From Chiloscyllium plagiosum (Eukaryota), in contig NC_057756.1 of assembly GCF_004010195.1 (NCBI RefSeq), forward strand, positions 9,943,330 through 10,007,329: a stretch of DNA of 64,000 nucleotides, in the 5' to 3' direction. Made by a program: the position numbers and the translations under genes. Below, piece after piece: positions 18,546-64,000 of this stretch (its first letter is position 1; the number at the start of each line of letters is the position of its first letter). A model generated the notes under the pieces. The model did no database searches and had not been told where the DNA came from. It was given only the letters and a program-made list of their open reading frames with translations.

Positions 18546-18549
18546 CTTT

Positions 18550-21250: not shown

Positions 21251-23329
21251 GTTATTCACCACCTTGACTGTCCAACAGTTCATCTTATCTTAACCAACTT
21301 ATTTTTCCTTCAGTAGCTAATTCAAGCTGTGACTTTGAATTTGATCAGTCAGTGACTTTTCATAAGCAAACCAGCCATCCTGTGCCTCTTGCAAACCAGT
21401 GGAAGCATTCGAGTAAAGAAAAGATCATGGAGAAATCTCTGAGTCAGCAAAAACCCACTAAACAGATCTTGCAAAAGGTTTTTCCAGTTTTCTCTCCATT
21501 CGTGTAATTTTTTCCCATTTTTAAATTTCTCTGCATTTATATTTGTGCAGGAAATAGTTCATAAGGGTTTGGAGTTTTAATTTCTCAAGTTTACTTCAAT
21601 TTATTGGTTACCTGTGACTAGATTTTAATTACCTCAAATAATTAGTGACTCTGGTTAAGTACGAACTCTAGTCCATGATTCCTATCAACTTGGGTTAAAA
21701 AATCACGCAGTTTGGGGATTTTACATAATCTTTCAAAATCTTTAGTTTTTGTGATGATTCCAGGAATAGTGAGGCTTGATTTTCAGTGTGCTATCCCAGA
21801 CGAGTCTTCACAAAATGCAAAGGCCAAAACAGCCTCAAAAAGTTGTGTCAATATTCATACAAAGCATAATAGGTGTTAGGTTCAAACAGCACCAATAATC
21901 ATACCAAATTCCAAGGGAATCACATGCAGGGGGTGGAGGACAGAAATGACAATGGTGTTGAAGAAGAAGCTGAGTAAGCTGTGTGAAATCAACTTTAGTA
22001 CCGAGATGTTGTATGAACAGATTGAAACATTCTGTTATCCTTCACAGCCACACATTCCCCAAGCCTCATCAATGCCAAATGATGCCATTTGCCCACTCAC
22101 ATGACACCTCATATCTCCGACAACACCCCTTGTCCTTTAAGCACCCCAGTGACCGCTGATATCTCCAAAGCCAATCTACGTCTCTCTTCCCAACCCCTAT
22201 GGCCCTGATGTCACCCATGACAACTCAGTGCTGACTCAGTCCCAACCTATATCCCACAGCTTCCTTTGCCTTTACAGCACCATTCTAACTCATGGTCTCC
22301 CCACTATGGGCAGACCTCAGGAGCGACGCTGAGAGGAAACAAAATGAAGCTGTAATTGCAGATTTTATTTAAAAAGATTTACTCATTCATAAAAAACACA
22401 TTCTCTCTTTAAATTCCTCCAACTCCTTAATTTTGCATACACGTAAAGACTCTATTCAATTAGTGAATGCCTTGTGAAAGCACATATTTGGATTCTTAGC
22501 CCAACATGAAAGACTTTCCATCTCTTGAAGCTATTAATCAAACTGTGAAAGAAAGGCCCCTCATCGTAGTAAAGGTAATCATATGGCATGATTTCTATAA
22601 TGGTGGCTCCCTGGTTTATGTCAGTAGACATAATGACATTGCAAGCACTGAATATTATAAATGGTAGACTTTTTTAAACTAAAAGGGCAATGGATTTAAA
22701 TACTGAGCAAGCTTGACCATTTCACTGATATTATTCCCTTTTTATGCATTTTCATGTCTCCACTTGGCAAACACAAAAATAACTTTCTCCTAAAGTGTTA
22801 CCTTGACTGATCAAAAAGGGATCTTTGGACCTATCTAGAGGGTCTGTTGTCTCTCCAAATAACCTGGGAAGCTCTTCAATGTGCAGTTTCTTCCATGAAC
22901 CACGAGTGTGAAAGATTCAATCTGTTTCCATCCCCTGAAACTCCCACTTCACCTTCTTCACTAATGAGTGTTGGGTTTAAGGATAGAACTTCCAGAACTG
23001 GGGCTAAGTTAGAGTCTCCTTTCATTCCTGTTAAACAATTGAGGACATAGAAAATAGTTGAATTGTAACTGAGAAATTAAAAGCTCGTGTTAAATATTAC
23101 CATTTTCTCCATAGTTATGATTGCAATATGATTGGTTGACTTCTAGCAATGATTTGTGAGAAGTGTGACTCAGACTCAAGTGCTTTTACATAAGAAGAAA
23201 TTCTATACACATGTATATAGTTGTTTCAGGTTGACATTAAATGCAGGAAATACTCATCATGTCAGGCAGCATCTGCACAGAGAGGGACAAAGTTAACATT
23301 GAAAAATAACTGTTCGTCTCACTGCAAAT

Positions 23330-23560
23330 AGGAGAAAATGAGGACTGCAGATGTTGGAGATCAGAGTCAAAAAGTGCAGTGCTGGAAAAGCACAGCTGGT
23401 CCGGCAGCATCGGAGGACTAGGAGAGTTGACATTTTGAGCATAAGCTCTTCATCATCACATTCCCGATAAAGGGCTTATGCCTGAAACATGTATTCTTCT
23501 GCTCCTCGGATACTGCCTGACCAGCTGTGCTTTTCCAGTGTCACACTTTTTGACTCACCA
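23330..23560. mobile_element. Short palindromic Penelope-like element
   Basis: gaggactgcagatg...ctggaaaagcacagc arm and its inverted counterpart. Confidence 0.7.
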
Positions 23561-24099
23561 CAGATAATGTCTGGCCTGCTTTTGTGTTGAAACAATTAAG
23601 TGATTTCATTCACAAGGATCAAGATGAGATGAATTGGGGCAAAATATCAAAAATGGGAAGAGGCAAAAGTTGTAGCTGAGTTTGACAGAAAGAGAGAGGG
23701 ATGTTCTGACTAATTGACCTAACACTGAGATGGAATTAATCTAGATCTGTGTAATGTTAATGAATGTGATGATCAGGCCTACTCTGATCAGCTGATGAAT
23801 ACCTCCAGCAGATAAACAACTTAGTACTCACAAGTAGATTTTGAATCACTACACTGAAAGTGATCTTTACTCAACATAGTAATCTCCGAAAATTCTGCAT
23901 GCACACAAACACCCTATTGAGGACTGCCCTATCTACAAACAAGTGGTGGAATAATCGCCTTAAACTCAACAACTGAGGAGGCAGTCACTTGACTCAAGGG
24001 ATATGGATTTGCTGAATCAATAAATAAGTGCTCAGGAATTGTAAGTATTTATGCTGTTGGGAACATTCAGTATAACAGAAACATTTTTCTTTGATTTAG

Positions 24100-24259
24100 T
24101 TGCATGAATTTAATCCCAGTTTTGAAGATAAACATTCAATCATTCCAGAAAATATCATTCATGGAGTGGCTTTCGTTTTTGATATGAACACATTCGACAA
24201 CATTGATCCGTATATAATGAAACAGTTTCAGGAGCTCCAAACTCTTGTGGCTCAGAAAT
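24100..24259 (+). CDS. IFI44-like: IFI44-like exon 5 (160 nt; LHEFNPSFEDKHSIIPENIIHGVAFVFDMNTFDNIDPYIMKQFQELQTLVAQK)
   Basis: Acceptor tttctttgatttag and donor gtaagt. FNP...IHGVAFVFD matches the IFI44 hallmark FNP...IHCVAFVFD. Confidence 0.85.
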
Positions 24260-24352
24260 GTAAGTCTCCATTTTGCTTTCAGACTTATAACCTTTATTGC
24301 CATTCAGTACCCTGTTGAACATTAATATTTTTACTGAATTCTATCTTTTCAG

Positions 24353-24450
24353 ATATTTACAGGATTGTGATTGGGACCAAATTTGACCAATTAGGGATAC
24401 CAGAGAGACATTATAGTTACATATACAACTACAAGCTGCTACAAGAGAAG
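24353..24450 (+). CDS. IFI44-like: IFI44-like exon 6 (98 nt; YIYRIVIGTKFDQLGIPERHYSYIYNYKLLQEK), G4 TKxD
   Basis: Acceptor ctatcttttcag and donor gtaata after a 93-nt intron. Phase 1 continues exon 5; carries a TKFD motif. Confidence 0.8.
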
Positions 24451-25039
24451 GTAATAGTTTTAGTGCATAGTATCACGTATATTGATGTCAGTACAATTTT
24501 TTTTAGTTTGTGATATGGGTATTATTGGAAAGGTTAGTACTGATTGCCCATCATGTATCACCATTGACAAAGTAGTGTGTTGCATTCATGAAATGCTACA
24601 GTTAATTGACTGAAGATGTTTTGATACAGTAATCCCCAAGTTTCGACATTGGTCTGGACTCTTAGCCCCCAGCTCCTCCAATTAACTAAATGTGTCAATG
24701 TGAGGATGGAAGGGCTGAATGGGGCACTCAAATACACTCAATTCAGGAAGCAGGTTTTAGCCTGAAGATATCTCTCAGTGAGGGGGCACAGGCAGACAGG
24801 AGAACATTCATTGGTCTTCTAAGTCAGAGGGTGTAGGCAAAACTCCCATTGCTGAAACATCAGCCTAAAGTCTAGACTGATGCTCCATACTGAGAGAGTG
24901 CAGCACAGTTAGAGATGAATTGTCCAGAATGTGATGCTTAACTGAAGCTCTGCCTGCCTCTCTAGGCACAATTCAAAACACAATCAGTGCTACAATGCAC
25001 TGGACTAATGCACCATAAATCTAGCTCTTTTTTTGTCTA

Positions 25040-28000
25040 GAGTTCATTTGTTCAGTAGATATAGGAGTAGAATTAGGCCATTTGGCCCATTGAGTCTGCT
25101 CCGCCATTTCATCATGGCTGATATGCTCCTCGCCCCCATTTTCCTGTCTTCTCCCCATAACCCTCGACCCATTAGCAATTAAAAATCCCGCCTAGCTCCT
25201 CCTTAAATTTACTCACTGTCCCAGTATCCACCACACTTTGGGATAGCGAATTGCACAGATTCACAATCCTTTGGGAGAAGTAGTTTTTCTTCAACTCTGT
25301 TTCAAATGTGCTACCCCTTATCCTAAGACTATGTTAGAATGCCCCACAGGAGGAAGCATCTACTCTACATCTAGTTTATCCAGACCTTTCATCATCTTGA
25401 AAACATCAATTTGATCTCCCCGCATTCTTCCAAATTCCAGAGATTTCAGGCATAAATTGTTCAATCTCTCTCCATATGACAAAACCCTCATCTTTGGGAT
25501 CAATCTTGTAAAACTCCTTTGAACCGCCTCCAATGGCACTACATCTTTCCTCAAATAAGGGGACCAAAACTGAGCACAATACTCCAGGTGTGGTCTTATC
25601 AATGCCTTGTGTAGTTGCAACAATACTTCCTTACATTTATATTCTATTCATTTAGCTTTAAAAGCCAACATTCCATTCACTTTCTTTATTATCTGGATGG
25701 CTGAATGCTAGTTTTCTGTGACTCATGAATGAGCACACCCAGATCCCTCTGTACCGTAGCACCCCAAGGTCTCTCCCCATTTAGATAATAGGTTGCCTTC
25801 CATTTTTCTGACCAAAATGCATGACCTCACACTTATCCACATTAAAATGCATCTGCCACATTTTGGTCCACTTTCCTAACACTTCCTCATTGCATTATGC
25901 TGCCTATTTTTGTGTCATCTGCAAATTTGCCTTTGAGCCTCTATCCCTGCATCCAAGTCATTAATATTGATTATAAATAGCTGGGGCCCAAGGACTGAAC
26001 CCTGTGGCACCGCACTAGTTATTTATTGCATCCAGAAAAATAAAATTTATCCTGACTCTCTGTCTTCTGTCCATCAGTCAGTCACCTATCCAAGCTAATA
26101 CATTACGTATAATCCCATATGATCCAATATTGTGAATTAATGTTTTGTGTGACACCTTATCAAATGCCTTCCGGAAGTCCAGATATTTTACATCTACAGG
26201 ATCCCCTTGATCCACTTTGCTTGTTACATCTTCAAAGAATTCTAGCAAATTAGTCAAACATGATTTTCCTTTTGCAAAACCATGCTGAATCTGACGAATA
26301 GCGTTTTGACTTTCCAAGTGTTTTGATATTGCTTTTTTGATCATTGATTCCAAGCAAATGTACACACAGTGCGTCCAGTTGACCCGATTTTCAGACCAAG
26401 GTTGATGGAAAGCACAGACCTACACTAACCAAGAATTAATTCCGATGATTAAATACAGCTACAGATAAAAGGATACAAGCTATTGGCACATCACACTACC
26501 AACTAAAAATCTAATCATTTGATAAATTCCACCCCCAATGAAAAACACAGACAAAACAGTGAAAACAGACTAACGATGGAGGTAAACAAAAACTGGAAAC
26601 TCCATTGATTAGTCTTTGCTTCTTAGTCTCAATGTTGAGGTGAATCGTCTTTGGCTCACCAGGCCCTTGGTGTTCAATTGTCTTTCTTTTAATACTCCCA
26701 CTAGTTTGTAAGTGGCAAATAAATTAAATTAAAGAGTGGATGATGCATTTGTACAATGCTTCTCATTTCTAAATTCAAACATTATTGTTCACAATTGCTG
26801 CAGGCAGGAAAACTGGTTTTATAGAGTCATAGAGATGTACCGTACAGAAACAGACCCTTCAGTCCAACTCGTCCACACCGACTGGATATCCCAACCCAAT
26901 CCAATCCCACCTGCTGGCACTTGGTCCATATCCCTCCAAACCTTTCCTATTCATATAACCATCCAGATGCCTTTAAAATGTTGCAATTGACTAGCCTCTA
27001 TCACTTCCTCTGGCAGCTCATTCCATACACATACCACTCTGTGTGAAAAAGTTACCCCTTAGGTCACTTTTATATCTTTCCCCTCTCACCCTAAACCTAT
27101 GCCCTCTACTTCTGGACTCCCCTACCCCACGGGGGTAAGACCTTGTCTATTTATCCTATCCATGCCCCTCATGATTTTATAAACCTCTATAAGGTCACCC
27201 CACAGCCTCCGATGCTCCAGGGAAAACAGCCCCAGGCCATTCAACCTCTCCCTGTAGCTCAAATCCTCCAACCCTGGAAACTCCCTGTAAATCTTTTCTG
27301 AACCCTTTCAAGTTTCACAACATATTTCCAATAGGAAGGAGACCAGAATTGCATGCAATATTCCAACAGTGGTCTAAAAAATGTCCTGTACAGCTGCAAC
27401 ATGACCTCCCAACCCCTGTACTCAAGACTCTGACCAATAAAGGAAAGCATACCAAATGCCTTCTTCACTATGTAAACACCTGTGACTCCACTATGAACCT
27501 GCACTCCAAGGTCTCTTTGTTTAGCAACACTCCCTAGGACCTTACCATTAAGAGTATAAATCCTGCTAAGTTAGCACAAACTGATCCATGCCGACCAAAA
27601 TATCATTCCATGCGAACCCCATTTCCCTGCACTTGGCCCATATTGTTCTAAACCTTTCCTTTCCATGTATTTGTCCAAATGCCTTTTAAATGTTGTTCAT
27701 GTACCTGCCTCAACTACTTCCACCAACAGTTCATTCCATATGCATACCACCCTCTGTGTAAATAAGTTGCCCCTCATGTTCCCATTTATTCTTTCCCCTC
27801 TTACCTTAAACTGATGGCCTCTCATCCTCCAATTCCCCAACCTCGGGGAAAAGACTGAGTGCATTCACCCCATCCATACCTCTCAGAATCTTATACACTT
27901 CTGTAAGATCCCCCCTCAGTCTCCGACACTTAAAAGAAAAAAAGTCCTAACCAGTCCAACCTCTCCAAAAAGCTCAGTCCCTTGAGTCCTGGCAATATTC

Positions 28001-30175
28001 TTTAATTCTTTTTCTGCATTATTTCCAGTTTAATAACATTCTTCCCAAAGCAAGGTGACCAAAACTGAACACAGTACTCCAAGTGCAGCCTCACCAATGT
28101 CCTGTACAACTGTGACATAATTTCCTAACTTCTGTATTCAATGTCCTAACTGATGAAGGCCATTGTGCCAACAGTCTTCTTCACTGCTCTGTCTGGGGTG
28201 GCACGGTGGCACAGTGGTTAGCACTGCTGCCTCGCAGCACCACAGACCTGGGTTCAATTCCTGTCTCGGGCAACTGTCTGTGTGGAGTTTGCATATTCTC
28301 CCAGTGTCTGCGTGGGTTTCCTCCCACAGTCTAAAGATGTGCAGGTTAGGTGAATTGGCCATGCTAAATTGCCTGTAGAGTTAGGTGAAGGGGTAAATAA
28401 AAGGGTTGCTCTTCGGAGGGTCGGTGTTGACTTGTTGGGCCGAAGGGCCTGTTTCGACACTATAAGTAATCTAATCTACTTATGACTCCACTTTCAGAGA
28501 ATTGTACGCCTGAACTCTCTTTGTTCCACTATACTCCTTAAGGACCTACCATTCACATTGATTTGACTTTCCAAAATGCAACACTTCACATTTATCTGTA
28601 TCAAACTCCATTTGCCATTTCTTGGCCCCACTTCACCAGCTGCTCAAGATCCAGCTGCAATTTCTGATAACCATCCTCACTGTCCACGATAACACCTAGT
28701 TTAGTGTCATCTGCAAACGTATTAATCATGCCTTGTACATTCTCATCCAAATCATTGATACAGATAACAAACAGCAATGGGCCCAGCATTGACCCTGGGC
28801 ACACCGCTAGTCACAGGCCTCCAGTCCGACAAACACCCTTCCACTATTACCCTCAGCTTCCTACTATCAAGCCAATTGTATATCCACTTTGCCAGCTTGC
28901 CCTGGATTCCATACGATCTAACCTTTCAGAAAGCCTACCATGCGGAATCTTATCTAGGGCCTTACTGAAATCCATACAGACTATTCCTAGTGCCCTGCCT
29001 TCATCAACCTTCCTTGTCACTTCATCAAAGAACTCTAATAAATTTGTGAGACGTGATCTCCTAGCTAAAAAGTCATGCTGACTACTCCTAATCAAACCCT
29101 GTCTTTCCAAATGCATGTTTATCTTATTCTTCAGAATTTTCGCTCGTAATTTACCTACCACAGATGTCAGGCCTACTGGTCTATAGTTCCCATGTATTCT
29201 TTGCAGCCCTTCTTTAATAAGGGCACAACATTTGTTTCCATCCAGTATTCTAGGACCTCACCTGTAGCTCACGATGATGCAATTATATCAACCAGGGTAC
29301 CTGCAATTTCTTCTTTCGCCTCTTGCAGTGTTCTTGGCTGTATCTGGTCAGGACCAGGAGATTTATCCATCTTCATACATTCTAACATGTTCAATACCTC
29401 CTCTACTGTGATATGGACTGTCCCCAAAATATCACCGCTAACTTCCCCAAGTTCCTTAGTCTTCTTGTCTTTCTCCGCGGCAAACACAGAGGTGAAATAT
29501 TCGTTGAGGACCTCACCCATTTCCTCTGATACATATGTGTCCACTTTGGTTCTTGAGAGGTCCTTTTCTCTCTATAGTTACTCGTTTTCCTTTAATATAT
29601 TTAAATAATCTTCTCGGCCAAAACTATCTTGTGTCCCCATTACCTTCTTCAGTAATCTCCTGCATCCCCTGTATACCTCCAGGGATTCTCAACCTCAGCT
29701 GCTCCTACCTGAGCCATGCCTCCTTTTATTTTTCTGGTCACAGCCTCAATATCTCTTGTCCTGGGTTCCCTACTCCTGCCAAACTTGCCCGTCACCCTCA
29801 GAGGAACATATAGATCATGAACTCTAGCTATTATACTATTAAATACCACTTGCCAGAGGTCCCTTTGCCTGCAAACAAACTACTCCAATCCACCCCTGTA
29901 AGCTCCTGTCCAATTCCTTCGAACTTTGCCTTGCCCCAGTTTAGAATTTGAACCTGTGGACCAGTTTTGTCTCTCTCTGTAGCAATTTTAAAAATATTAG
30001 AACAATGGCCACTGGTCCTAAAGTGCTCCCTCAGCTGTCATCTCAGTCACCTGTCCTGCCCTATTTCCCAAGAGTTGGTGGTGTTTTGCCCCTTCCCAAG
30101 TACGACACTCCATATAATGCTTCAGGAAACTTTCCTGAACACACTTAACAAGTTCCATTCCATCAAAGCCCTTAA
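25040..30175 (-). mobile_element. Cluster of CR1 LINE remnants (~25040-26355, ~26820-27570, ~27575-30175) with HE1 SINE at ~28196-28480 (+)
   Basis: QHGFAKGKSCLTNLLEFFE, FADDTK and IRPHLEYCAQFWSP translations. Confidence 0.88.
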
Positions 30176-30736
30176 TTCTATGTTGTTTTACTGCTGGCTT
30201 CTGCTGGGGAAAGCAATTCCACAATCATGTGTGCCTTTCTCTCTTTTTGTATCTCTATGACTTGCTTCAACCTGCTCAGTTAACTAAGAACCAATTAGCT
30301 TCATGAGTGAATAACTCTTCCTCTTTGGATCATCTGCATATTACAGGAATCCACAGCCATAACAAAAATTCGCAGCAGTTACCAAATGGTGAAATTATGC
30401 AGCCATCCTGGTAAATTCCTGTTTTTAAAAACAGTACTTTCTCATTGCACTACACATTCTAAAAGTCCTTATGTGCCCCCATCCTTAAGGAAAATTAAAT
30501 GTCATTTCCAAAATGCATGTAATTACAAATCCATAATATATAGACTGCAAGACTTTCATTCTTCCTCCCCATTTATATAAATTTATGTTTTGGAACTTAT
30601 TACATTTTAATGTATTCTAACATTTTACTTCAAGTTTAGCCATAGCTGCAGTCACTGCACGTAATGGAAAAATTTCCACAACCTGTTCCTGCAACTATTC
30701 CATTTCTACAGCCTCAGCTGGACTTTCCGTGATTAT

Positions 30737-30957
30737 TGCTGAAAACGTGTTGCTGGAAAAGCGCAGCAGGTCAGGCATCATCCAGGGAAGAGGACAATCG
30801 ACGTTTCGGGCATAAGCCCTTCTTCAGGAATTCCTGAAGAAGGGCTTATGCCCGAAACGTTGATTCTCCTGTTCCCTGGATGCTGCCTGACCTGCTGCGC
30901 TTTTCCAGCAATACATTTTCAGCTCTGATCTCCAGCATCTGCAGTCCTCACTTTCTC
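30737..30957. mobile_element. Short palindromic Penelope-like element with two hammerhead cores
   Basis: Symmetry centre ttcaggaa|ttcctgaa at 30830/30831; TSD CTTTCCGTGATTAT (30723-30736, 30958-30971). Confidence 0.85.
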
Positions 30958-31464
30958 CTTTCCGTGATTATAGGCAAAGTTATGCTTTCACTCTTGCAAC
31001 AGCATTCCCCAGAAGTAAATGAACTCCATTTATTCACATGTAATTTCTAAACAACCCAACTCCTATACTCACAACAAGAAGTCACCGTCCAATGAAATCT
31101 CAAATCATAGAAATGGACTGTAAAAAGGGAAATACACTATTTATCTCTCTAGCTATTCATCTGAAAACATCTTGATTTTCAAAGAAGTCCCTGGAGAGTT
31201 TGCATAGTTCCTGTATCTCTTGTCAATCGACTTGGCTGCTTGCTTTGAAGAAAAAGAGATTATCTTTGCTTGAGATGAAAACAAACCTTCAAACCCTTCA
31301 TAAAACTGTTCATAAAACCTATATAGCTTATGTCATTCATTTACAATGCCTTTTTCTGGTCTCTTAGTTAATCTAGTGTTCGTCTGATCAGAACATGCCC
31401 TGTGTGAAGCTATGCAGTTGCCTGTACTCAAGTGATGTTCAAAAATGTGTGGATGGAAAAGCGC

Positions 31465-32220
31465 TGCAGGTCATCCTTCGTCATTTCTGCCACCTCCAAA
31501 CGGACCCCACCACCAAGGATATATTTCCCTCCCAAACCCTATCAGCGTTCCAAAAAGACCACTCCCTCCACGACTCCCTTGTCAGATCCACAGCCCCCAC
31601 CAACCCAACCTCCACTCGCGGCACCTTCCCCTGCAACCGCAAGAAATGCAAAACTTGCACCCACACCTCCCCCCTCACTTCCCTCCAAGGCCCCAAGGGA
31701 TACTTCCATATCCATCAAAAATTCACCTGCACCTCCACACACATCATTTACTGCATCCGCTGCACCCGATGTGGCCTCCTCTACATTGGGGAGANNNNNN
31801 NNNNNNNNNNNNNNNNNNNNNNNNNNNNNNNNNNNNNNNNNNNNNNNNNNNCCCTCATTTCCCCTCCCCCCACCTTGTCTCAACCAAACCCCTCGAACTC
31901 AGCACCGCCTTCCTAACCTGCAATCTTCTTCCTGACCTCTCCGCCCTATCACCCTCATCTTAACTTCCTTCCACCTATCGCATTTCCAACGCCCCTCCCC
32001 CAAGTCCCTCCTCCCTACCTTTTATCTTAGCCTGCTGGACACATTTTCCTCATTCCTGAAGAAGGGCTTATGCCCGAAACGTCGATTCTCCTGCTCCTTT
32101 GATGCTGCCTGACCTGCTGCGCTTTTCCAGCAACACATTTTTAAGCTCTGACCTGCTGCGCTTTTCCAGCAACACATTTTTAAGCTTTGATTGCCAGCAT
32201 CTGCAGTCCTCACTTTCTCA
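31465..32220 (+). mobile_element. Penelope-like element 3' part (GIY-YIG and terminal repeat)
   Basis: FTCTSTHIIYCIRCTRCGLLYIGE; hammerhead-like core at ~32056-32083. Confidence 0.88.
31795..31851. other. Small assembly gap (57 N)
   Basis: Run of N inside a Penelope-like element. Confidence 1.
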
Positions 32221-32629
32221 AGGGATGTTCCCCAAGCTCAGGCTGATGGGTGAGGGGGTTCATTTACATTGGGCCTTGTCATTGATAGAAGCATTGATTG
32301 AGTCAAGCTTCCTAAAAAAGGAGGCATGATGTAAGATGATGCTGCCCCCAACTCCAAGTTGACTGCTGGGAGTTGGTTTCTTGCGGATTGTTCATTCTTC
32401 TCATTGGCACTGAGGCTGGCATCCCATCACTAATCATCTCTTATTCACAAATACGTCGACTTTGACAACAGCACTGACTCTCACTGGGTCAGGCATCAGA
32501 GTGTCCAATATCCCTGCCAGTCATCCTTTTACTTTAGCCAGGGCTCCTTGATTGGACCAGAAGTGATAACCCCAATCAGGAAACTCATATTCAGCTGGCT
32601 GACCTTGTAAAAACCATCTCACTCAGGCT

Positions 32630-34170
32630 GTTTCCTTAAATTCTGGAACCTTTGCCTATGTATCTGAGGTACTAACACATATGCAGCCAATATAGCTTTC
32701 TTCACTGTATTATAATCTCAAGTATTCTTCTCTGACAGTGATGCATAGATTTCCTGTGCTTTTACTGTTAACTTACTCTGCATGAGAAATATCTAGACGT
32801 CTTTTCCCAATTAATTTGTCTTGCCATTTTTTCAAACGTCATGAAGAATGCCTTCACATGCTTTTCCTCAAACTTCACGCAGGACTGTTTAAAGCTTAAA
32901 TTCTTACTGGACTTAAATTATGATTCAAATGCTCCCCACCAGAACCTGCATCTAATATTTCCTGTATCAACTGTGCCATTTAAAAATTATATTCATATTC
33001 TCTCATTTTCTCTTCTCTTTGTAATTCTAAATCTAGTATTCTCATTTCCATTTTTCAATTCCACTCCTTCTCCTAATCTTTTGCTGTCCTTATCTTTTCC
33101 TCACCTTTGGAGTTCTATTTCCAATTTAATCACTCTCTTGTCATACTCATGCTGCTTTCACTGAAGTTGAACATTTCAATACCTTAAGTACTTTTCCCTT
33201 TCTGTATTTCCACTAAACCCAAGTGCAGTGCTAGTACCACAATTCGCCTTATCTTTTTTTCAAGTCAGGCAATGCCTTGAGCAAACCTTGAGTTTACCCA
33301 CTAAGACAATCAACTTTGATTTTGAAATTTCCTTTAAGACTGGCAGCAACAACACTGCCACCTGCAGCAAAATATTTGTTGTTCCCTGTCTTAACTGCAA
33401 TACACAATCTGGTGTTATTTTTACAATACCACACTCATATCCTCATTGCTTCTGTTTCCAACACAGTTCAATCCAATCCAAACCCAGGCAAACCCACAGG
33501 GGAAGTTTGCTGTAAATCAAACCGCAATCTTATAGGAGTGTATAAAAATACACACAATACCCTAACTTATTTGACTTTCAAACCAAGCTTGGTAAAAAGC
33601 ACAGACTAGGTTTTACTCTAACCAAGAAATATTAATTATTCCAAGTAATTCAAATATAGCTAAAAGTAACCAGAGATAAACCATTGGCATGTACTATCAT
33701 TACCTAAAACATTAATCTCTTTGCACACGTACACAGACTAATCACACAGGTTGAAAAACTGTAAAGCCAGCTCAACTGATTCCAATTTGAGATAATCTTC
33801 ATTGTGCTTTGGTGTCCAGTCATTTTTTTTTGAATACTTCCACTTGTTTGTTGGTGTTGCAGAATGGTCAGTTCACATATGAAATGTCTCTGATTTACCA
33901 ATTTAAAAGTTTGCTTTTACTGCAAAGTACAGAGAACTTGTGATAGGGAGACGAACTGCACAGACATCTGTCTTTATCTCTCTGTGTGTCTGCACCTATA
34001 ACTTGTTTCCACTTCCAACTTGTTCAGTTCGCTGAGAACCAGTTTGCTTTAGTTGCAAACAACCCCTTAGCTCCTAAATAGCTGAACATTGTTTTAGTGG
34101 CTGTGGCTGGTTACAGAATTCAGAATAGCATTCAAATTCCTGGCTGTGAAATTATGCAGCCATCCTGGTG
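32630..34170 (-). mobile_element. Old Gypsy-type LTR retrotransposon remnant (gag and upstream region)
   Basis: Lys/Glu-rich coiled-coil-like minus-strand composition. A linked segment near 30640-30720 reads FPLRAVTAAMAK, resembling Gypsy protease ends. Confidence 0.4.
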
Positions 34171-34195
34171 GAGCTCTTTTGGAAAACAGTTCTGA

Positions 34196-37100
34196 ACTAA
34201 CTGCACAGAGGTCGGTATCCCATCACCAAGTCACCTTCATTTACTTGTGCACAGTACACTGGCTGTGGATAGCCTGCTCAGAGTCATTTCTCAAAAAGAG
34301 ATTCTAATCTCCTGGGTATATTTTCTAATCAACCATCCAAAGACATTATCATGCACCTCTAGAGTAGGCAGGACTTGAATCCAGGATTCCTGGGCTAGAG
34401 TTAGGAACAATACTGCTGCACCACAAGAATCACTCTCCTAGTTATATTGGTCAGCCAGGGCTTTCTTGACTGACCCAGGTTAATAACCCCAATCATCGAC
34501 CTCATCGTCAACAAGGTTAATCTGGTTCCAATCCCTACATCCATACGCATCCAAATCAGGTCTTTGGCCATTTTCACCTCAGCTCCAGTTTCTGTGAGCT
34601 GGACTCTGACATGAGTGGCATATACCAGACGGTAAACCGCCTCTTGCACCTGCAGTGCCTCAGGAGATTTTTCTCCTCTCCCTCCAGCAATAATGGCATT
34701 AAAGCTGCATCCATCTCGGACTCTGAGGTTTACTCAAGATGGAGGGGAGAATGTACAGTTTTCAACAGGCCTTCTGGCGGTTTTGAGGGACTCCTGCCCA
34801 TTTGCAAGGTAACAGCTTTCAGGTTAAGATTAGATTAGATTAGATTACTTACAGTGTGGAAACAGGCCCTTCGGCCCAACAAGTCCACACTGACCCGCAA
34901 CCCACCCAGACCCATTCCCCTACATTTATCCCTTCACCTAACACTACGGGCAATTTAGCATGGCCAATTCACCTAAACTGCACATTTTTGGGCTGTGGGA
35001 GGAAACCGGAGCACCCGGGGGAAACTCACGCAGACACGGGGAGAATGTGCAAACTCCACACAGTCAGTCGCCTGAGGCAGGAATTGAACCCGGGACTCTA
35101 GCACTGTGAGGCAGCAGTGCTAACCACTGTGCCATTGTGCCACCCGTATACAGGTGATCCACATGTTTGTTCAGGATTCTATCACATACACAAATGTGCT
35201 AAGTGATGGGACTTGACCTCATATCAACTTTGCCTTGTAACCATTCAGGGCCACTTTCATCATTCCCACACCAAAGTTTATCCCCTGAATAAAATTGACT
35301 CTCTCGCTTAGAGGAGTCTTGTGGCTGGCATTAGCATTCCTGCTGCCATTTCACCCTCTCCCCAGGACTGGGAACATCAGGTTTAACCGGGTACAGAGTC
35401 TTCTCCCATCAGCAACTCTGCTGGAGCTATCCCTGTTGTTGAATGTGGGGTGGTACTATAAACAAACAGGAACTGGGTCAGTTTGGTAATAATTGACACT
35501 TTAGGCTGCTTCTTTAAGCCTGCCTTTAACATTTGGACTGTTCTTTCCGCTAGACCGTTGGATATTGAATGACATGAAACTGTTCTGATGTGCTGAATGC
35601 CATTGGACTTTAAAAAATACTTGAATTCCCTGCTGGTAAATAACGCTTCATTGCCCGTGACAAATTTTTCCAGAAGTCTGTGTATGGCAAACAATGCTCA
35701 CAGTTTCTCAATCATTATCTCCGAGTTTGCAGAACAAACTTTATGCATGTCCAGCTACTTTGAATGGGCATCCACAATGAGTAAGAACATTGAGCCTATG
35801 ATAAGAGCCGACATAGTTGATGATCAACTGAGTCCAGCGTTTTCCTGGACATTTCCATGAATGTAGGGGCACTGCTGATGACAATGTTTGCCCTTGTTGG
35901 CACTCTGAGCACTGCCCTACCAACGCAGCCACGTCATTATCCAACCCTAGCCACCAGACATAGCTTCTTGTGAGCATCTTCATCTTGGAAACCTCTGGAT
36001 GACCTTGGTGGAGTCTAGCCAGTCTCTGGCAGTGACCTTTACTCGGGACAATCACTCTTGCTCCCAGCAGCAATATGCCATCCTCTACGGTGATCTGGTC
36101 TCACCGAGTCCAGTAAAGGTTTAATCCTGGTTGTGATGGCCCTTCTGTTTGCTCCATGGCCACCAGATGTTTTAGTTTCACTAGCCCAGGACCTTTTTAT
36201 GTCCACAGTCAGATATTGTCAGCAGTGACTGGAAGAGTGCCCAGAAGTTCAAAACCAAACCGGACTGTTCTGGAGAGGCACTGCTGATGGAGTATCTGCT
36301 AATGGGAGGCGGCTCAAGGCATCCACATGAGCTACTTGGCTTCCTGGTCAGTGTTCCAAACTTTACTTGAACACGCTGAGAATAAGGGCCCAGCGTTAAA
36401 TTCTATCAGAAGCTACGGGCATCACCGTCGTGTCTTCCTTCAGTAGCCCCAGGAAGGGTTTGTGATCTGTTACAATGACAAATTAGCATCTGTAAAGGTA
36501 GTAGTAGCACTTCCTCACACCAAAGATAACTACCAAAACTTTCTTCTCTATTGAGGCGTATTTGCATCTGGCATCAGCCAAAGTCCTGGAAGTATATGCT
36601 AATCAGTCATTCCTCTCCATTGGGCCATCAGTGAATCAACACTGTCCCAATACTGTGTTGGGATTGGGGGGAATCATCATATGTCAGCTTTATCTCCCAG
36701 TTTGGATCATCGGGGTCAACAGCTGAGATGATGATAGCTGCTTCTTCACTTCCCTACAGGCTACTTCTTGGCTACACAACTATTTCCAATGACTCTTTTT
36801 CAATAACAGATGCAAGGATGCCAAAGTAAAAGCCAATTTATATATGAATTTTCCATAATAATTCATTAACCTGAGAAAAATCTAAGCTCCAGTACAGACG
36901 TGGGAGCCAAGGCTCCTTTGATGGCTCTCATTTTCACTTCCAAAAGGAGTAACCCAGGTTTGTTGACTCTAACCGAAGTAGGCTACTTGGGGTGTCTGGA
37001 AGAAACATTTAAGCACTATTATTTTATTAGTTTTCCTGGTTATTTACACATCATCAAGATAAATGACAACCTCGTGTAGCCCTTGTAAAATGTTCTCCAT

Positions 37101-37350
37101 GGACCACTGGTAAAGGTTGCAGGCTGATGATACCCTAAATGGCAATCTTGTATATTGATATAAACCCTTATGGGTATTAATTGTAGCATACCTCTGGGAC
37201 TCCTCATCCAGTCATAATTGTGGGTAGGTGTGGCTCATGTCCAGTTTCATAAAGGATAGCTCTTCCCTCCCCCCCCCTGCATTAACTCTGCATATAAATC
37301 CTCTATGCAAGGGATCAGGTATTTATCCAGCTGCAAGTAGTTTACCATTT
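34196..37350 (-). mobile_element. Degenerate Gypsy/Ty3 pol (RT, RNase H, integrase) with LTR-like end; HE1 SINE nested at ~34826-35146
   Basis: LHQGHPEVSKMKMLTRSYVWW, FTSREFKYFLKSNGIQH, SNGLAERTVQ and TTPHSTTG integrase motifs. Confidence 0.85.
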
Positions 37351-37369
37351 GCTTAAAATCCCCTCAAAG

Positions 37370-37665
37370 GCATCATGGTAGCCTACAAGCTTACCAATAC
37401 ACTTAAACAGCAGCTAATGAACCCAAAGGATCCATTAGATACTACCAGCAAAACTAAATGGCATTTACAAAATACCATGCAAGAACTGTAAAAGACTATA
37501 TTGGACAAACAAGCAGGAAACTCGCAACCAGGATACATGAACATCAACTAGCTAGTGGGACAGAATCATAGGACACACATTCTGTGTCCTATAATCCTGC
37601 CCCACTAGCTATCTGATGAGACTTTTAACTTAAAATCAATAAACACACGTTACCAACCCATCAAC
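37370..37665 (+). mobile_element. Penelope-like (Poseidon-type) GIY-YIG fragment
   Basis: IYKIPCKNC..YIGQTSRKLATRIHEHQLA. Confidence 0.7.
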
Positions 37666-38323
37666 TTTCTTTAAGCACCGTTCAGACTTGATAATGTTAC
37701 TTTCAAACGTTTGTCTATATACGACTCCTGATCCCTCTATCCTTGCACCGCCGCTCAATTCGTGTCATTCTGAAATATTTCCGATTAGAGAAGGAACGCG
37801 CAGTGTAAACCCAAAGGAAGAGAGGCAAATAGATTCAGATAAAAATATTACTTTGAATTGAATGCAGGGCATTGCGGAGATCCTCAATTTCACGAGAAAC
37901 TTTGTACACGAACAGAACACATGGCATCTTGAGATCCCCATCAGGTGCGGGACTGTCCATCAGAATAGTTTTGTGTACATTTCCTTGTCCGTAACATTCC
38001 ACTGGTATAAAAGATAACTCATGCTGAGTCAGGCATTATGGCACATAACGGATAATTTATTTATTATCTGCAGCAACATGCTTCACCCTTGTACCTTGTC
38101 TCAATCAACGACCAGAGGTCTCCCTGCGCCCTCACATGCTTCTATTACCGAATAACTTCCTAGTCCGCCTTTTCTACCCTCTTCCTTAAACCCACTCCGA
38201 ATAGTCTTACTACCCACTCCTCCCCTGCCACTCTCCCATTTTTCCTACTCCTTACACTCTGCACCTCCTCTTCCTGACTTCTTCCCTCCCTCTCCATATG
38301 AGCCAGACCTCATCCCCCCTCCT

Positions 38324-38524
38324 AGAAGAAAGTGAGGTCTGCAGATGCTGGAGATCAGAGCTGAAAATGTGTTGCTGGAACAGCGCAGGTCAGGCAGCAT
38401 CCAAGGAACAGGAGAATCGACGTTTCGGGCATTCCTGAAGAAGGGCTTATGCCCGAAACGTCGATTCTCCTGTTCCTTGGATGCTGCCTGACATGCTGCG
38501 CTGTTCCAGCAACACATTTTCAGC
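38324..38524. mobile_element. Short palindromic Penelope-like element with hammerhead core
   Basis: Inverted arms; CTGAAGA-A-GGGC-TTAT-GCCC-GAAACGTC; duplicated ctcatcccc flank. Confidence 0.8.
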
Positions 38525-39054
38525 TCATCCCCTCCTACCTTTGTAACGCAGTCCAAGGATTGCTCTGCTGCAGCAGGAAGGAAGCAAGTTCACGACATGG
38601 ACCTGGACCCAGATCGGAAGCAGATGACGGCTAAGGGTTTGGAGCCGGTTTCTGATTATCTTCAGCAGCCAGGTGCAGATGAGGATTCCGATCCTGATTA
38701 CCTTCAGGATCAGGGTATGGATCCACACAACGAACTGAACCAAGTAATAAATTACCATTCCCATTCTTCCGAAGCAGATTTCTGGTCAGCATATAACTCC
38801 GTCTTCCCATTGGCTCCCAATGGAGTTGCTCTCTTTTCTCATTGGTCCCATTGTACAGCTCCCTTTGGTCCCGCCCACTTTACCCATTGGAGGACTGATA
38901 GGTCACTCAACGCTGCCCAATAAACTTGTTGAACTATAACCCGGTGTTGTGTGAGTTTTAACCGTAAACGTGTTGGATTGGAACCTGGTGTTGTGTGAGT
39001 TTTAACTTCGCCAAGACAAAACAAAATCTGCAGATGCTGGAATCCAAGGTAGAC

Positions 39055-40280
39055 AGGCAGGAGGCTGGAAGAACTCAGCAAGGCAGGCAGCATCAGGAGG
39101 GACAGGCAGGAGGCTGGGGGAACACAGCAAGGCGGGCAGCACCAGGAGGGTCAGGCAGGAGGCTGGGGGAACACAGCAAGGCAGGCAGCATCAGGAGGGT
39201 CAGGCAGGAGGCTGGGGGAACACAGCAAGCAGGCAGCATTCAGGAGGGTCAGGCAGGAGGCTGGGGGAACACAGCAAGGCAGGCAGCATCAGGAGGGTCA
39301 GGCAGGAGGCTGGGGGAACACAGCAAGGCAGGCAGCATCAGGAGGGTCAGGCAGGAGGCTGGGGGAACACAGCAAGGCAGGCAGCATCAGGAGGGTCAGG
39401 CAGGAGGCTGGGGGAACACAGCAAGGCAGGCAGCATCAGGAGGGTCAGGCAGGAGGCTGGGGGAACACAGCAAGGCAGGCAGCATCAGGAGGGTCAGGCA
39501 GGAGGCTGGGGGAACACAGCAAGGCAGGCAGCATCAGGAGGGTCAGGCAGGAGGCTGGGGGAACACAGCAAGGCAGGCAGCATCAGGAGGGTCAGGCAGG
39601 AGGCTGGGGGAACACAGCAAGGCAGGCAGCATCAGGAGGGTCAGGCAGGAGGCTGGGGGAACACAGCAAGGCAGGCAGCATCAGGAGGGTCAGGCAGGAG
39701 GCTGGGGGAACACAGCAAGGCAGGCAGCATCAGGAGGGTCAGGCAGGAGGCTGGGGGAACACAGCAAGGCAGGCAGCATCAGGAGGGACAGGCAGGAGGC
39801 TGGGGGAACACAGCAAGGCAGGCAGCATCAGGAGGGTCAGGCAGGAGGCTGGGGGAACACAGCAACACAGCAAGTCAGGCAGCATCAGGAGGGACAGGCA
39901 GGAGGCTGGGGGAACACAGCAAGGGAGGCAGCATCAGGAGGGACAGGCAGGAGGCTGGGGGAACACAGCAAGGCGGGCAGCACCAGGAGGGTCAGGCAGG
40001 AGGCTGGGGGAACACAGCAAGGCAGGCAGCATCAGGAGGGTCAGGCAGGAGGCTGGGGGAACACAGCAAGGCAGGCAGCATCAGGAGGGTCAGGCAGGAG
40101 GCTGGGGGAACACAGCAAGGCAGGCAGCATCAGGGCGGGATAGGCAGGAGGAACACAGCAAGCCAGGCAGCATCAGGGGGGACAGGCAGGAGGGTGGGAG
40201 AACACAGCAAGCCAGGCAGCATCAGGAGGCTGGAAGAACTCAGCAAGCCAGGCAGCATCAGGAGGGACAGGCAGGAGGCT
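39055..40280 (+). repeat. 49-bp minisatellite, about 25 copies
   Basis: Unit gtcaggcaggaggctgggggaacacagcaaggcaggcagcatcaggagg; period 49 (for example 39301 and 39350). Confidence 0.95.
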
Positions 40281-40299
40281 GTAGGAACACTTAGTGTTC

Positions 40300-41006
40300 T
40301 TGTTTTGGAGACTAAGTGTAGTGTTATGGCAGCGCAGGCAGCGGAATATTCCTCCTGCAGGATGTTTGAGGTAGGGGTGACCACCGATGCTCCTGCCGAC
40401 TTCACCTGCAGGAAGTGCAGCCAGCGCCAGCTCCTCAAAGACCACGTTAGGGAACTGGAGCTGGAGTTGGATGAACTGAGGTTATTCGAGAGGCTCAGAG
40501 GGTGATAGAAGCTACAGGGACATAGTTACCCCAGAGAACAGAGGTAGCTGGGTAACAGTTAGAGGTGGGAAGGGGAGGAAGCAGGCAGTGCAGGGATCCC
40601 CTGTGGTCGTTCCCCTCAACAATAAGTATACCGCTTTGGATACTGTTGGGGGGGGACGGCCTAACAGGGGTAAGCTGCAGTGACCGGATCTCTGGCACGA
40701 GGTCTGGCTCTGAGGCCCAGAAGGGAAAGGGTGAGAGTAGGAGAGCGCTAGTTATAGGAGACTCTATAGTTAGAGGGACAGACAGGCGGTTCTGTGGACA
40801 TGGGCGAGACTCTCGGATGGTTTGTTGCCTCCCGGGTGCCAGGATCCTTAAGGGGGAGGGTGTGCAGCCAGAAGTCGAGGTGCACATTGGCACGAACGAC
40901 AGAGGTAGGAAGAGGGTTTGGGAAGTCATTCAGGAGCTCAGGGAGTTAGTCTGGAAGCTAAAAGCTAGGACGAACAGAGTCGTCATCTCTGGGTTGTTGC
41001 CGGTGC
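40300..41006 (+). mobile_element. CR1 LINE ORF1 (zinc finger, coiled coil, SGNH-esterase-like), truncated by the gap
   Basis: FTCRKC..VRELELELDELR; ALVIGDSIVRG..MVCCLPGAR..VHIGTND. Confidence 0.85.
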
Positions 41007-42240: not shown

Positions 42241-42254
42241 TATTACCTTCTCTT
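42241..42254 (-). pseudogene. Remnant of IFI44-like exon 6 (last 8 nt AAGAGAAG plus gtaata donor) at a deletion junction
   Basis: Reverse complement reads ...ggcttgctgcag|aagagaag|gtaata, fusing sequence equivalent to 21009 with 24443 of the middle contig. Confidence 0.8.
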
Positions 42255-43608
42255 CTGCAGCAAGCCTGAGATGAAGTTGTTGGCCAGGGAATAAGGTGCT
42301 GCGTGGCAGGCAACTGGAATCTCAGAGTCTTTTTGTGGTCAGAACATAGGTGTTCTGCAAAACAGTCACCCAGTCGACACTTCTGTCCCCAGTGTAGAGG
42401 AGACCACATTGCGAGAAGCAAAAGCATCAGACTAGATTAAGTGAAGTGCAGGTAAAGTGCTGCTTCACCTGGAAGATATGTTTGGGTCTTTGCATACTGG
42501 GGAGGGAGGTAAATGGACAGATGTTACACCTTCTGCAGTAGTAGGGAAAGGTGCCATGGGACTGTGGGGTGAGGGTTAGTGGGACTGAAGGGTGTCCCAG
42601 AAGGAACAGTCGCTGTGGAAGGCGGACAGGTAATGGAGGGGAATATGTGGCTATTACTGTTACAAGGATATTACTTGAATGCTAAGAAATTGCAGAACGC
42701 TGCTGTGCAGAAGAACCTTGGTGTCCTTGTGCATGAATTGCAGAAGAATGGTCTGCAGGTACAATAGGAAGTTAGGAAGGCAAATGTAGTTTTGTCCTTC
42801 ATTGCTAAAGGAATTGAGTGTAAAAGCAGGGAGGTTATGTTTCATCTCTATAGGGTGCTAGTGAGGCCACACCTGGAGTACTGCGTGTAGTTTTGGTCTC
42901 CTTTAGAAAGGATGTACTGGCACTCAAAGGGGTGCAGAGGATGTTCACTGGATTGATTCCAGAGTTGAGGGGTTTGGCTTATAAGAAGAGACTGAGTAAA
43001 TAGGCTGGGATTATGTTCATTGGAATTTAGAAGAATGAGTGTGAATCTTATAGAAACATATAAAATTGTGAAGGGAATACATAAGATAGAAGCAGGGAGG
43101 ATGCTTCCACTGGCAGGTGAAACTAGGACAAGAGGGCACAGCCTCAAAATTAGAGGGAGCAGATTTAGGACTGAATGGAGATGAAACTTCTTTACCCGGA
43201 GGTTTGTGAATCTATGAAATTGCCTGCCCAATGAAGTGATTGAGCCTTCCTCACTAAATGTTTTTAATGCTGAGATGAAAATTTTTGAACAGTAAAGGAA
43301 TTAAGAGTTATGGTGAGAGGGTGGGTAAGTGAAGCTGAGGCAAGAGAAAATCAGCCATGATCTTATTGAATAGCAGAGCAGGCTCAAAGGGCCAGATGGC
43401 CTACTCCTGCTATGAGTTCTTATGTTGGGTGGTGGCATCCTGCTGGAGGTGGTGGAAATAGCAGCTAATGATCCTCTGGATGTGGATGCTGGTGAGAAGA
43501 TAGATAAGGACAAGGAGGACCCTATTGTTGTTGTCGAAGGGAAGAGATGGGGTGAATACTGAATGCGGGAGATGGGTCAGACCCATGTCAACAGCGGTGC
43601 TGGGGAAG

Positions 43609-53809: not shown

Positions 53810-53938
53810 ATCGGTTCCTGGTAGTATTCTTCCCTCAAGGATCATATTGAAAACTTGCATTGGATCGTTTTTATTTTCGAGTGCATTCCAACCAGCCAGA
53901 TCCCAAAACCTGAGATAGTTTGACCCACAGTAATTGAG
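53810..53938 (-). CDS. IFI44-like: IFI44-like exon 4 (129 nt; LNYCGSNYLRFWDLAGWNALENKNDPMQVFNMILEGRILPGTD), G3 DxxG
   Basis: Acceptor tgtaacag and donor gtgagt; phase 0/0 with no stops. FWDLAG is a DxxG motif, and ILEGRI corresponds to the IFI44 ILxG motif. Confidence 0.8.
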
Positions 53939-62088: not shown

Positions 62089-62290
62089 CGTGGGTGTGAG
62101 AGATTTCCGATTCCGCTCAATTGGAGCAAGGTTCGTTATTCTTCCTTTTGGATCCAGAGCTGAGAGAAATGTGTTAATGGTGGCTGATATACCAGCTCCC
62201 TCCATTCCAAACAGCAAGATGTTTATATACTTCCCACATTCTCTGGGAGGCTGGTAGTCCAACAGATAGTCCCTCAGAGATTCCAGCTTT
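62089..62290 (-). CDS. IFI44-like: IFI44-like exon 3 (202 nt; KLESLRDYLLDYQPPRECGKYINILLFGMEGAGISATINTFLSALDPKGRITNLAPIERNRKSLTPT), G1/G2 region
   Basis: Acceptor ttttttggcag and donor gtactg. ILLFGxxGAGxS..IN.F.S resembles the IFI44 P-loop segment (RILLLGPIGAGKSSFFNS). Overlaps ORF 62011..62262. Confidence 0.85.
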
Positions 62291-62386: not shown

Positions 62387-62432
62387 CGTCGGTTGAAAAC
62401 TGGACTGTGAACAGCATTATCATTCGAATAAG
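62387..62432 (-). CDS. IFI44-like: IFI44-like exon 2 (46 nt; SYSNDNAVHSPVFNRR)
   Basis: Acceptor ctctttttatttcag and donor gtgagt; phases 1 and 2 match the neighbouring exons. Confidence 0.75.
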
Positions 62433-62514
62433 CTGAAATAAAAAGAGAATGTATTAAATTATTTAGTTTAAAATACGAGTATAGAATCAGAGAACCACAA
62501 AATTATTGACTTAC

Positions 62515-62524
62515 AGCTTCCCAT
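62515..62524 (-). CDS. IFI44-like: IFI44-like gene, coding exon 1 (ATG GGA AGC T | gtaagt)
   Basis: Minus strand reads ccagacATGGGAAGCT followed by a consensus gtaagt donor. Phase 1 joins exon 2 in frame (M-G-S-S). Confidence 0.7.
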
Positions 62525-62559
62525 GTCTGGACTCAGCCCAGGTACAAACTCTAATCTGT

Positions 62560-62595
62560 GAAACAGAAACGACCTAAGGCGGGTTTGGAAATTCC
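62560..62595 (-). promoter_or_regulatory. ISRE/IRF motif (GAAACAGAAAC, 62560-62570) and NF-kB-like site (GGAAATTCC, 62587-62595)
   Basis: Matches GAAANNGAAA and the RelA-type GGAATTTCC, 36-71 bp upstream of the ATG. A second kB-like GGAATTTTCC lies near 62804-62813. Confidence 0.55.
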
Positions 62596-63299
62596 GGACT
62601 CTGCCTCTTGCTTCTGCTCAGCGATGGATTTGGTGACAGAAAGAGAACTTGCTCAGCAGGAAGATGGTTTAATTCTTATATATTTATTCTTTCATTGCCG
62701 TTCCTCAGCACCTTTAAGCTGTAAGTCTCCAACATTAATGAATGAAAATGCTATTCTCTTTTGCATGATATTTGCTTTGCCCTCATGTCGGAAACAAAGG
62801 GCTGGAATTTTCCATTCGAGTTGTGAACCAAATTGTCTGAGGTAAGACATGATTAACCCTCCCAAGACTTTAACATTATTCCTAAATACCCAGAATTGTC
62901 AGCACTGTCCAGCTGACCCCTAACCAATGAATTGAAGCTCTATGGTAATGTGCAAATGTCCCTTTGTAGAAAATGGATAGACTGTGTCAAATACAAAGAA
63001 ATTTCTTCAAGGTGGGTATACATCTGCTGCTCTCTCGGACAGGATTTCTGATTTAATCTTTCTTTTTGTTCACCATCATTACTTTCATTTTCTCTGCTGG
63101 GTTTTGACACAGCCTAACCATTTTCTCATATTCTTAGCCCTCATTATTATTTATTCAGCTTCTTTTCAGTCCTGGCTTACTCTCAATAATCCTCTTGTCT
63201 GCCTGCTCTGGAATCTGTCTCCATCTATCCCCTCACCTCTCCCCCACATCCACCCACAACAATCTCATCTTCGCTGTAAATATTATATTTTCGTAACTG

Positions 63300-63970: not shown

Positions 63971-64000
63971 CCCACCTCCAACACTCTCCATCCACCTGCA

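Follow-up and report, generated by a model that had tools for sequence, protein, structure and literature searches.

IFI44 is among the most used interferon-signature genes, and its biochemistry is still open; in a 2019 paper, it is said to lack homology to GTPases (PMC6712396). The human proteins IFI44 and IFI44L (444 and 452 aa, respectively) are interferon-stimulated and combine a TLDc domain with a G domain. The TLDc domain of IFI44 is N-terminal, and mEAK7, another TLDc protein, is described as myristoylated (bioRxiv 10.1101/2025.05.24.655954), while in zebrafish, ifi44 is reported to have expanded to 19 members (bioRxiv 10.1101/693333).

The IRGs are likewise interferon-related P-loop GTPases, with paralogue clusters, tandem forms, and a subgroup in which the P-loop Lys is replaced. 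An MGxxxS start is reported for 11 mouse IRGs, ISRE promoters are reported for IRGs, and in the GMS subgroup, the P-loop Lys is changed to Met (PMC1297648). The GMS proteins are reported to regulate Irga6, holding the myristoylated protein in its GDP-bound form (PMC2581590, PMC1297648), and are reported not to be myristoylated themselves (PMC2581590).

Here, we examine an IFI44-like gene in a 64,000-nt stretch of Chiloscyllium plagiosum DNA (the window). Judged by its sequences, the family to which this gene belongs appears to be a widespread, apparently undescribed variant of IFI44 that carries a myristoylation signal and is IRG-like in design only. The signal is solid at the level of the family, and the window copy is a poor representative of it. 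Across the titles and abstract openings of the non-subscription literature, we find no TLDc-less or myristoylated IFI44, with the proviso that the supplements of bioRxiv 10.1101/693333 may show zebrafish ifi44 architectures; in the same literature check on IFI44, PMC13030082 contains one general mention.

Gene layout in the window

The start of the gene lies on the minus strand near the end of the window. The coding part of the ATG exon, comprising Met-Gly-Ser and the first base of codon 4, is 10 nt long (62515..62524, minus strand) and is identified by the sequence, its splice flanks, and a RefSeq orthologue; a GTAAGT donor follows at 62514 on the minus strand. The ATG at 62524 has a good Kozak context, with G at both -3 and +4, and is preceded by a 31-nt leader that is open in frame and free of ATG (62525..62555, minus strand). 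Directly above this leader is an AG (62557-62556) that is a possible acceptor for a non-coding upstream exon, and if the leader is instead unspliced, an in-frame TGA is reached at 62620-62618 (the neighbouring ORF spans 62468-62617). The first exon is thus at least 41 nt long, and only its coding part is 10 nt. Coding exon 2 (62387..62432, minus strand; 46 nt, residues 4-19) encodes Ser6 and is supported by the sequence, mapping, RNA depth in run X2, and its flanks, a pyrimidine-rich AG upstream and GTGAGT downstream. Of the two micro-exons in the original prediction, the 46-nt exon 2 therefore stands, whereas the first is a micro-exon only in its coding part. Coding exon 3 (62089..62290, minus strand; 202 nt), supported by the sequence, mapping, and the ends of X2 contigs, contains helix 1, the P-loop GMEGAGIS, and switch I. 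When exons 1-3 are spliced, the protein starts MGSSYS and Gly47 of the P-loop lies 46 residues past Met1, in good agreement with the roughly 45 residues that had been proposed.

The 269-aa RefSeq protein XP_072409828.1 of C. punctatum (hereafter P0003), retrieved with exon 3, has an N-terminus identical to the MGSSYS of the window. It maps onto seven window exons, all with canonical splice sites, with 262/269 residues matching, and is by this measure the orthologue of the window gene. Its start and the splice sites bear out the predicted MGSSYS start across a 10-nt coding segment and a 46-nt exon. Mapping of P0003 and splice flanks also place coding exon 4 (53810..53938, minus strand; 129 nt), with the G3 motif DLAG and an ILEGR motif, and the terminal coding exon 7 (11187..11351, minus strand; 165 nt including the stop). 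Intact exon 5 (24100..24259, plus strand; 160 nt) and exon 6 (24353..24450, plus strand; 98 nt, with the G4 motif TKFD) are found by mapping and self-comparison on a second copy in the opposite orientation.

This arrangement reflects an unusual assembly. The window, repeat-rich shark DNA, is interrupted by three N gaps (17422-17921, 31795-31851, and 41007-41506), and the contig between the two 500-N gaps (17922..41006, plus strand) is, by self-comparison, an inverted second copy of the region from intron 4 to intron 6. This contig matches 45493-41507 and 17421-13061 at 89-95% identity when read in the opposite orientation, carries repeat insertions of its own, and has no exon 7. The second copy may represent a paralogue, an internal duplication, or a strongly diverged haplotype that scaffolding put here. 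The gap-free contig with exons 1-4 shows, by self-comparison, a deletion junction (42247..42261, minus strand), where 3433 nt equivalent to 21010-24442 are gone at 42255, with GCTGC microhomology at the junction. Exon 5 is thereby lost entirely, and all that survives of exon 6 is its final 8 nt together with the donor. A transcript that joined exon 4 directly to exon 7 would stay in frame and encode a 183-aa protein without G4. With exon 5 and most of exon 6 missing beside exons 1-4, the product may thus be this skip form or nothing. At the junction (42247-42261, minus strand), the AG left there, the exon-6 remnant, and the original donor together form a possible 8-nt micro-exon that would shift the frame.

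A family-profile search of the window yields no further exon copies. Relative to P0003, exons 1-6 have 3 mismatches in 215 residues, whereas exon 7 has 4 in 54 (Fisher p = 0.03). This contrast gives a hint that the true partner of exons 1-4 may be the intact inverted copy, through a chimeric or collapsed assembly or an internal duplication. A simple mis-orientation of the middle contig of a single gene is ruled out by the 89-95% identical second copy together with the deletion in the first.

RNA and promoter

Among the four RNA runs compared with the window, X2, which has a different organism label, is the most informative on splicing. The alignments of two of its contigs break off precisely at 62290 and 62089, with 118 and 159 unaligned letters continuing beyond the exon-3 edges, and depth over the pair of bins containing exon 2 is 5.1 and 6.6. 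Splicing of exon 3 is thereby supported in a relative. Run X1, which has the matching organism label, gives a single unspliced contig of 317 nt, and exons 1-3 are without depth in X3 and in X8, for which about 2% of the run was read. The ATG exon has zero depth in 4/4 runs, and the alignment of RNA to the window is dominated by repeats at 63320-64000 and lists no transcript start or end sites.

Upstream of the ATG by 34-46 nt is an ISRE-like 13-mer, RNGAAANNGAAAC (62558..62570, plus strand). It is the sole match in 64 kb to what we take to be the ISRE consensus, against 0.37 expected, and for a looser core, 6 matches are counted where 4.4 would be expected, both figures applying to a motif that was spotted before the chance test was run. 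The pyrimidine tract of the putative acceptor at 62557-62556 falls on this same element, which could therefore act as a promoter element, as a splice signal, or in both roles. A kB-like site seen in the sequence (62587..62596, minus strand) agrees at 9/10 positions with what is presumably the kB consensus. Two further features of this region are a TATA-like TATATAAG at 62675-62682 (minus strand), some 150 nt before the ATG, and, at 62695, an upstream ORF of 3 codons in the same frame.

A G-domain-only IFI44-like family

Three protein searches yielded a homologue set of 71 elasmobranch clusters and one teleost protein. The TLDc domain (PF07534) is found in 0/72 of these homologues at E <= 1e-4, and it is detected neither in P0003 at E <= 1 nor in the 18 upstream minus-strand ORFs. 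For comparison, ESM Atlas clusters with TLDc have the domain in 79-98% of their members. Kinship with IFI44 is supported by both features and structure: P0003 has a feature score of 0.99 to an IFI44-like Atlas cluster, and its model aligns to IFI44 and IFI44-like Atlas clusters with TM 0.84-0.92, including TM 0.84-0.85 over 252-255 residues for the TLDc-bearing IFI44 clusters. RefSeq already labels many of the homologues IFI44-like. The shark proteins thus share the G-domain family of IFI44/IFI44L, with a lineage-specific expansion, and differ from the human proteins in their length of 269 aa, the absence of TLDc, an N-terminal MGxxxS(K), and, in the window copy, a Walker A Lys replaced by Ile.

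The AlphaFold model of P0003 (pLDDT 85.8) has a P-loop GTPase fold in which residues 1-3 are disordered. The best Foldseek matches are GIMAP2 (E 5.5e-7, TMq 0.49), GIMAP7, and Toc33/34 (TMq 0.52-0.53), while VIA-align places EngB, Sar1, and GIMAP4 in a tie (Z 13.9-14.5). The GIMAP and Toc33/34 proteins are the top solved-structure matches in Foldseek, at an identity of 12-20%; the AIG1 Pfam match reaches 17.2 bits, under the cut-off of 27, septins are weak profile matches, and the best PDB profile match has E = 0.016, with no close solved structure. GIMAP proteins are moreover anchored by C-terminal hydrophobic segments and not by an N-terminal lipid. Taken together, these comparisons show an elasmobranch family of ~270-aa, G-domain-only IFI44-like proteins with a predicted TRAFAC-type GTPase fold, as the original prediction of a compact, TLDc-less, GTPase-fold-only IFI44 subfamily had it.

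A teleost protein, P0082 (Metynnis hypsauchen MHYP_G00093250), is the only homologue reached by sequence search toward bony-fish and mammalian IFI44. With P0003, it gives an hhalign value of 97.6% at an identity of only ~25%. Like the shark proteins, it has only the G domain, with MGGTSSK at an internal Met38, and it carries no functional annotation; unlike them, it has a longer Pro/Thr-rich linker, and a very long branch joins it to the shark family. Its motif and that of the sharks may reflect shared ancestry or convergence. The TLDc-less design is shared by P0082 and by further chordate IFI44-like Atlas clusters of 290-328 aa, which list no TLD. The design is therefore no chondrichthyan speciality, and a shark-specific innovation is ruled out.

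Several other architectures are seen. The ESM Atlas includes chordate IFI44-like clusters with Ig I-set domains ahead of the G domain, as well as plant, mollusc, and fungal look-alike clusters, so that the front module in this family is apparently freely exchanged. P0002 of Mustelus asterias (559 aa) has an MGxxxS start and two tandem IFI44-type G domains and may be a merged gene model. In P0076, P0077, and P0054 (Hemitrygon, Mobula), a repeated, Pfam-negative domain of ~100 aa is fused before the G domain, and in the C. punctatum isoform models P0005 and P0057, the G domain is interrupted by a 37-aa insert resembling what is presumably an exonised CR1-type LINE fragment. A search with exon 3 only, against representatives, returned five shark or ray proteins and one unrelated bacterial match.

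IRG membership is ruled out by size, fold, and exon structure. IRGs are ~47 kDa with helical domains and one long coding exon (PMC1297648), whereas the shark protein has 269 aa and seven exons, and Foldseek alignments to Irga6/IIGP1 give TM by query 0.36-0.41 with an rmsd of 11. The proposed resemblance to IRGs thus holds for design and does not extend to fold, size, or exon kinship.

Conservation of the N-terminal signal

An MGxxx[ST] start that precedes the P-loop by 40 or more residues is present in 43/71 clusters, spanning sharks, rays, and skates and representing 14 named species and one Logan protein, with stingray and manta paralogues and isoforms weighing heavily in these cluster counts. 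The remaining clusters include 5 with the motif behind a modelled in-frame extension, 13 with other N-termini, and 10 that are N-truncated. By chance, the motif is rare: only 21 of the 1801 ATG-initiated hexapeptides in the window (1.2%) read MGxxx[ST]. Among the 45 MG-starters, residue 6 is Ser in 44, residue 7 is Lys in 34, and residue 10 is Cys in 31, the Cys being found mainly in rays and skates. MGxxxS occurs in most branches of the family tree, and several sharks (P0033, P0068-P0073) form a clade in which long stretches of acidic, repetitive sequence extend the N-terminus, the MGxxxS start being kept in some members.

Conservation is sharply confined within the N-terminus. Across 10 MG-starting shark proteins spread over the tree (a comparison that leaves out P0069, which has MG but no Ser6 and whose start is probably internal, and the isoform P0005), residue 6 is Ser in 10/10, while residues 3, 4, 5, and 7 each have five to six states. 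Ser6 is retained in P0002, P0006, P0022, and P0033 despite inserts after the first codons, which may be partial duplicates of exon 2. Three Logan-assembled contigs (1168-1465 nt) encode 269-aa proteins that start MGSNYSK, consistent with spliced transcripts beginning at this Met. A PROSITE-type myristoylation pattern, in the form we assume it to have, fits 40/45 MG-starters, including the window protein. In NMT substrates, Ser5-Lys6 (numbered after Met removal) is reported to be a recognition element (PMC4224572). The comparison shows Gly2 and Ser6 to be under what appears to be selection, with neighbours that vary as in NMT substrates. Loss of Gly2/Ser6 in homologues had been set as a refutation of the lipid-signal proposal, and the refutation fails: both residues are kept in sharks, rays, and skates, and the suggested chondrichthyan survey for MGxxxS-initiated IFI44-like proteins returns MGxxx[ST] starts in 43 of the 71 elasmobranch clusters.

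The window copy is less well equipped. It has Asn7 instead of Lys7, lacks Cys within residues 3-15, and is without a basic patch (3 K/R vs 2 D/E in residues 7-22). Lacking Lys7, Cys, and a basic patch, it would be at best a weak membrane binder, and to call this copy membrane-anchored, as had been done, is too strong.

Nucleotide site of the window copy

The P-loop of the window copy, GMEGAGIS, has lost the Walker A lysine (Lys53 to Ile). This Lys is kept in 65/68 aligned homologues and is missing from P0003 and from two ray proteins whose loops have degenerated throughout. Of the 76 positions that are at least 90% conserved in the other rows (46/71 rows kept for coverage), P0003 is off consensus at 6: K53I, T70I, G77E, Y90C, L116F, and P125L. 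All six fall within residues 53-125 and are present in the window, and T70I and G77E lie in switch I; the number is high, not extreme, as seven other rows of the 46 have six or more. A motif check of the window gene finds G3 DLAG, finds G4 TKFD on the second copy only, and finds no intact GxxGxGKS. An intact sister paralogue, P0058, starts MGNSYSK and has a GKS loop, and its branch in the tree is 0.24 compared with 0.44 for the P0003 lineage. From these substitutions, the window copy is most likely a nucleotide-site-degenerate paralogue that no longer hydrolyses GTP, and probably a pseudo-GTPase or a decaying paralogue. In P0076/P0077, both the P-loop and G3 are dead, making these a second, independent pseudo-GTPase lineage.

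Proposed function and alternatives

The explanation that we favour, and hold to be more likely than not, is that the two small exons encode the genuine N-terminus of a G-domain-only IFI44-like family and that the window lineage is a degenerate, lipid-tagged paralogue. The Met would be removed and myristate placed on Gly2 by N-myristoyltransferase, giving weak, reversible membrane binding, so that myristate would take over from TLDc the task of bringing the G domain to membranes. The conserved Cys10 of rays and skates may add palmitate and thereby strengthen binding. Genes of the family would be interferon-induced through the proximal putative ISRE, and members that retain an intact GKS loop would be GTP-binding proteins with a role at membranes, either in antiviral defence or in the feedback that controls it. 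The window/P0003 lineage, if it works at all, may be a lipid-tethered scaffold or decoy beside the intact sister gene. Restriction of RSV by human IFI44/IFI44L is reported to be independent of the predicted GTP-binding region (PMC7459546), and thus a copy with an altered P-loop need not be useless. Together with a report that IFI44 acts through FKBP5 (PMC6712396), this makes a scaffold role plausible. A complex prediction of P0003, P0058, and GTP/Mg, made without alignments, scored 0.17 against a mark of 0.34 and weighs neither for nor against a partnership.

Alternatively, the locus may be a decaying duplicate or null allele in which the motif is passive inheritance, the nucleotide site having eroded before the 3.4-kb deletion broke the gene. 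The deletion in the gap-free exon 1-4 contig (exon 5 gone, 8 nt of exon 6 left), K53I with five more radical changes, the loss of Lys7, the very low RNA depth, and the existence of the intact P0058 all fit such decay. We nonetheless consider it unlikely, though the strongest of the alternatives, as the C. punctatum orthologue, despite sharing all six changes, is open over the full 269 aa, the splice sites are canonical, the RNA contigs of a related organism respect the exon-3 boundaries, and the mismatch contrast between exons 1-6 and exon 7 (p = 0.03) fits a pairing of exons 1-4 with the intact copy and a chimeric or collapsed assembly. The proposal that MGxxxS is no lipid signal in vivo, either because an in-frame extension lies upstream or because Gly2 is N-acetylated and Ser6 structural, strikes us as improbable. 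The start Met is the same in P0003 and in the three Logan-derived proteins, residues 1-3 are disordered in the model, and Gly2 and Ser6 stay constant amid variation at residues 3-5 and 7-10, as in NMT substrates. A possible acceptor AG with its pyrimidine tract does lie 31 nt of open leader above the start, only 1.5 kb is visible upstream, the ATG exon has no RNA depth, and in-frame extensions are modelled in 5/71 homologues and in the teleost protein, but these extensions are unrelated between lineages.

The parallels with IRGs raise a more elaborate scenario, a convergent system in which myristoylated GKS members would be membrane effectors and the GIS copy would hold them inactive. By analogy, the P-loop change is at the same position as the Lys-to-Met change of GMS IRGs (PMC1297648), the control of Irga6 by GMS proteins is a precedent (PMC2581590), and the paralogue expansion, tandem P0002, and the P-loop-dead lineage P0076/P0077 parallel IRG tandems and quasi-IRGs. 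However, GIS occurs in one genus only (1/71 clusters and the window), unlike the old GMS clade, the IRG helical domains are absent, and in the literature covered, a membrane-disrupting activity of IFI44 is not reported, leaving this scenario doubtful. The same low credence applies to its broadest form, an IRG-like fish defence built on the IFI44 G domain, in which the myristoylation exon and TLDc would be interchangeable and a GIS paralogue would regulate its GKS sister as IRGM does Irga6.

Implications and further features of the window

The favoured reading of a lipid-tagged, G-domain-only family bears on IFI44 at large. That a G domain and a myristoylation signal alone are kept in sharks, rays, and skates would make the G domain the functional core of IFI44, probably acting at membranes. 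It also predicts that the mammalian TLDc is a membrane- or V-ATPase-type address. V-ATPase binding by the IFI44 TLDc finds no support in PMC8608904, in which Ifi44 never occurs. The family offers a natural minimal construct for structure determination, GTPase assays, and a simple G2A test. The window copy is the poorer test object because of its damaged nucleotide site and the deletion, and an intact P0058-type sister is better suited.

Beyond the gene, a tandem array at 38968-40290 of the window has a ~98-nt unit that is like the local SINE and is open in several frames. By eye, 35386-35697 (minus strand) resembles a fragment of what we take to be an LTR-retrotransposon integrase, and 11975-12958 (plus strand) resembles a fragment of what is presumably the C-terminal zinc-binding region of a LINE.
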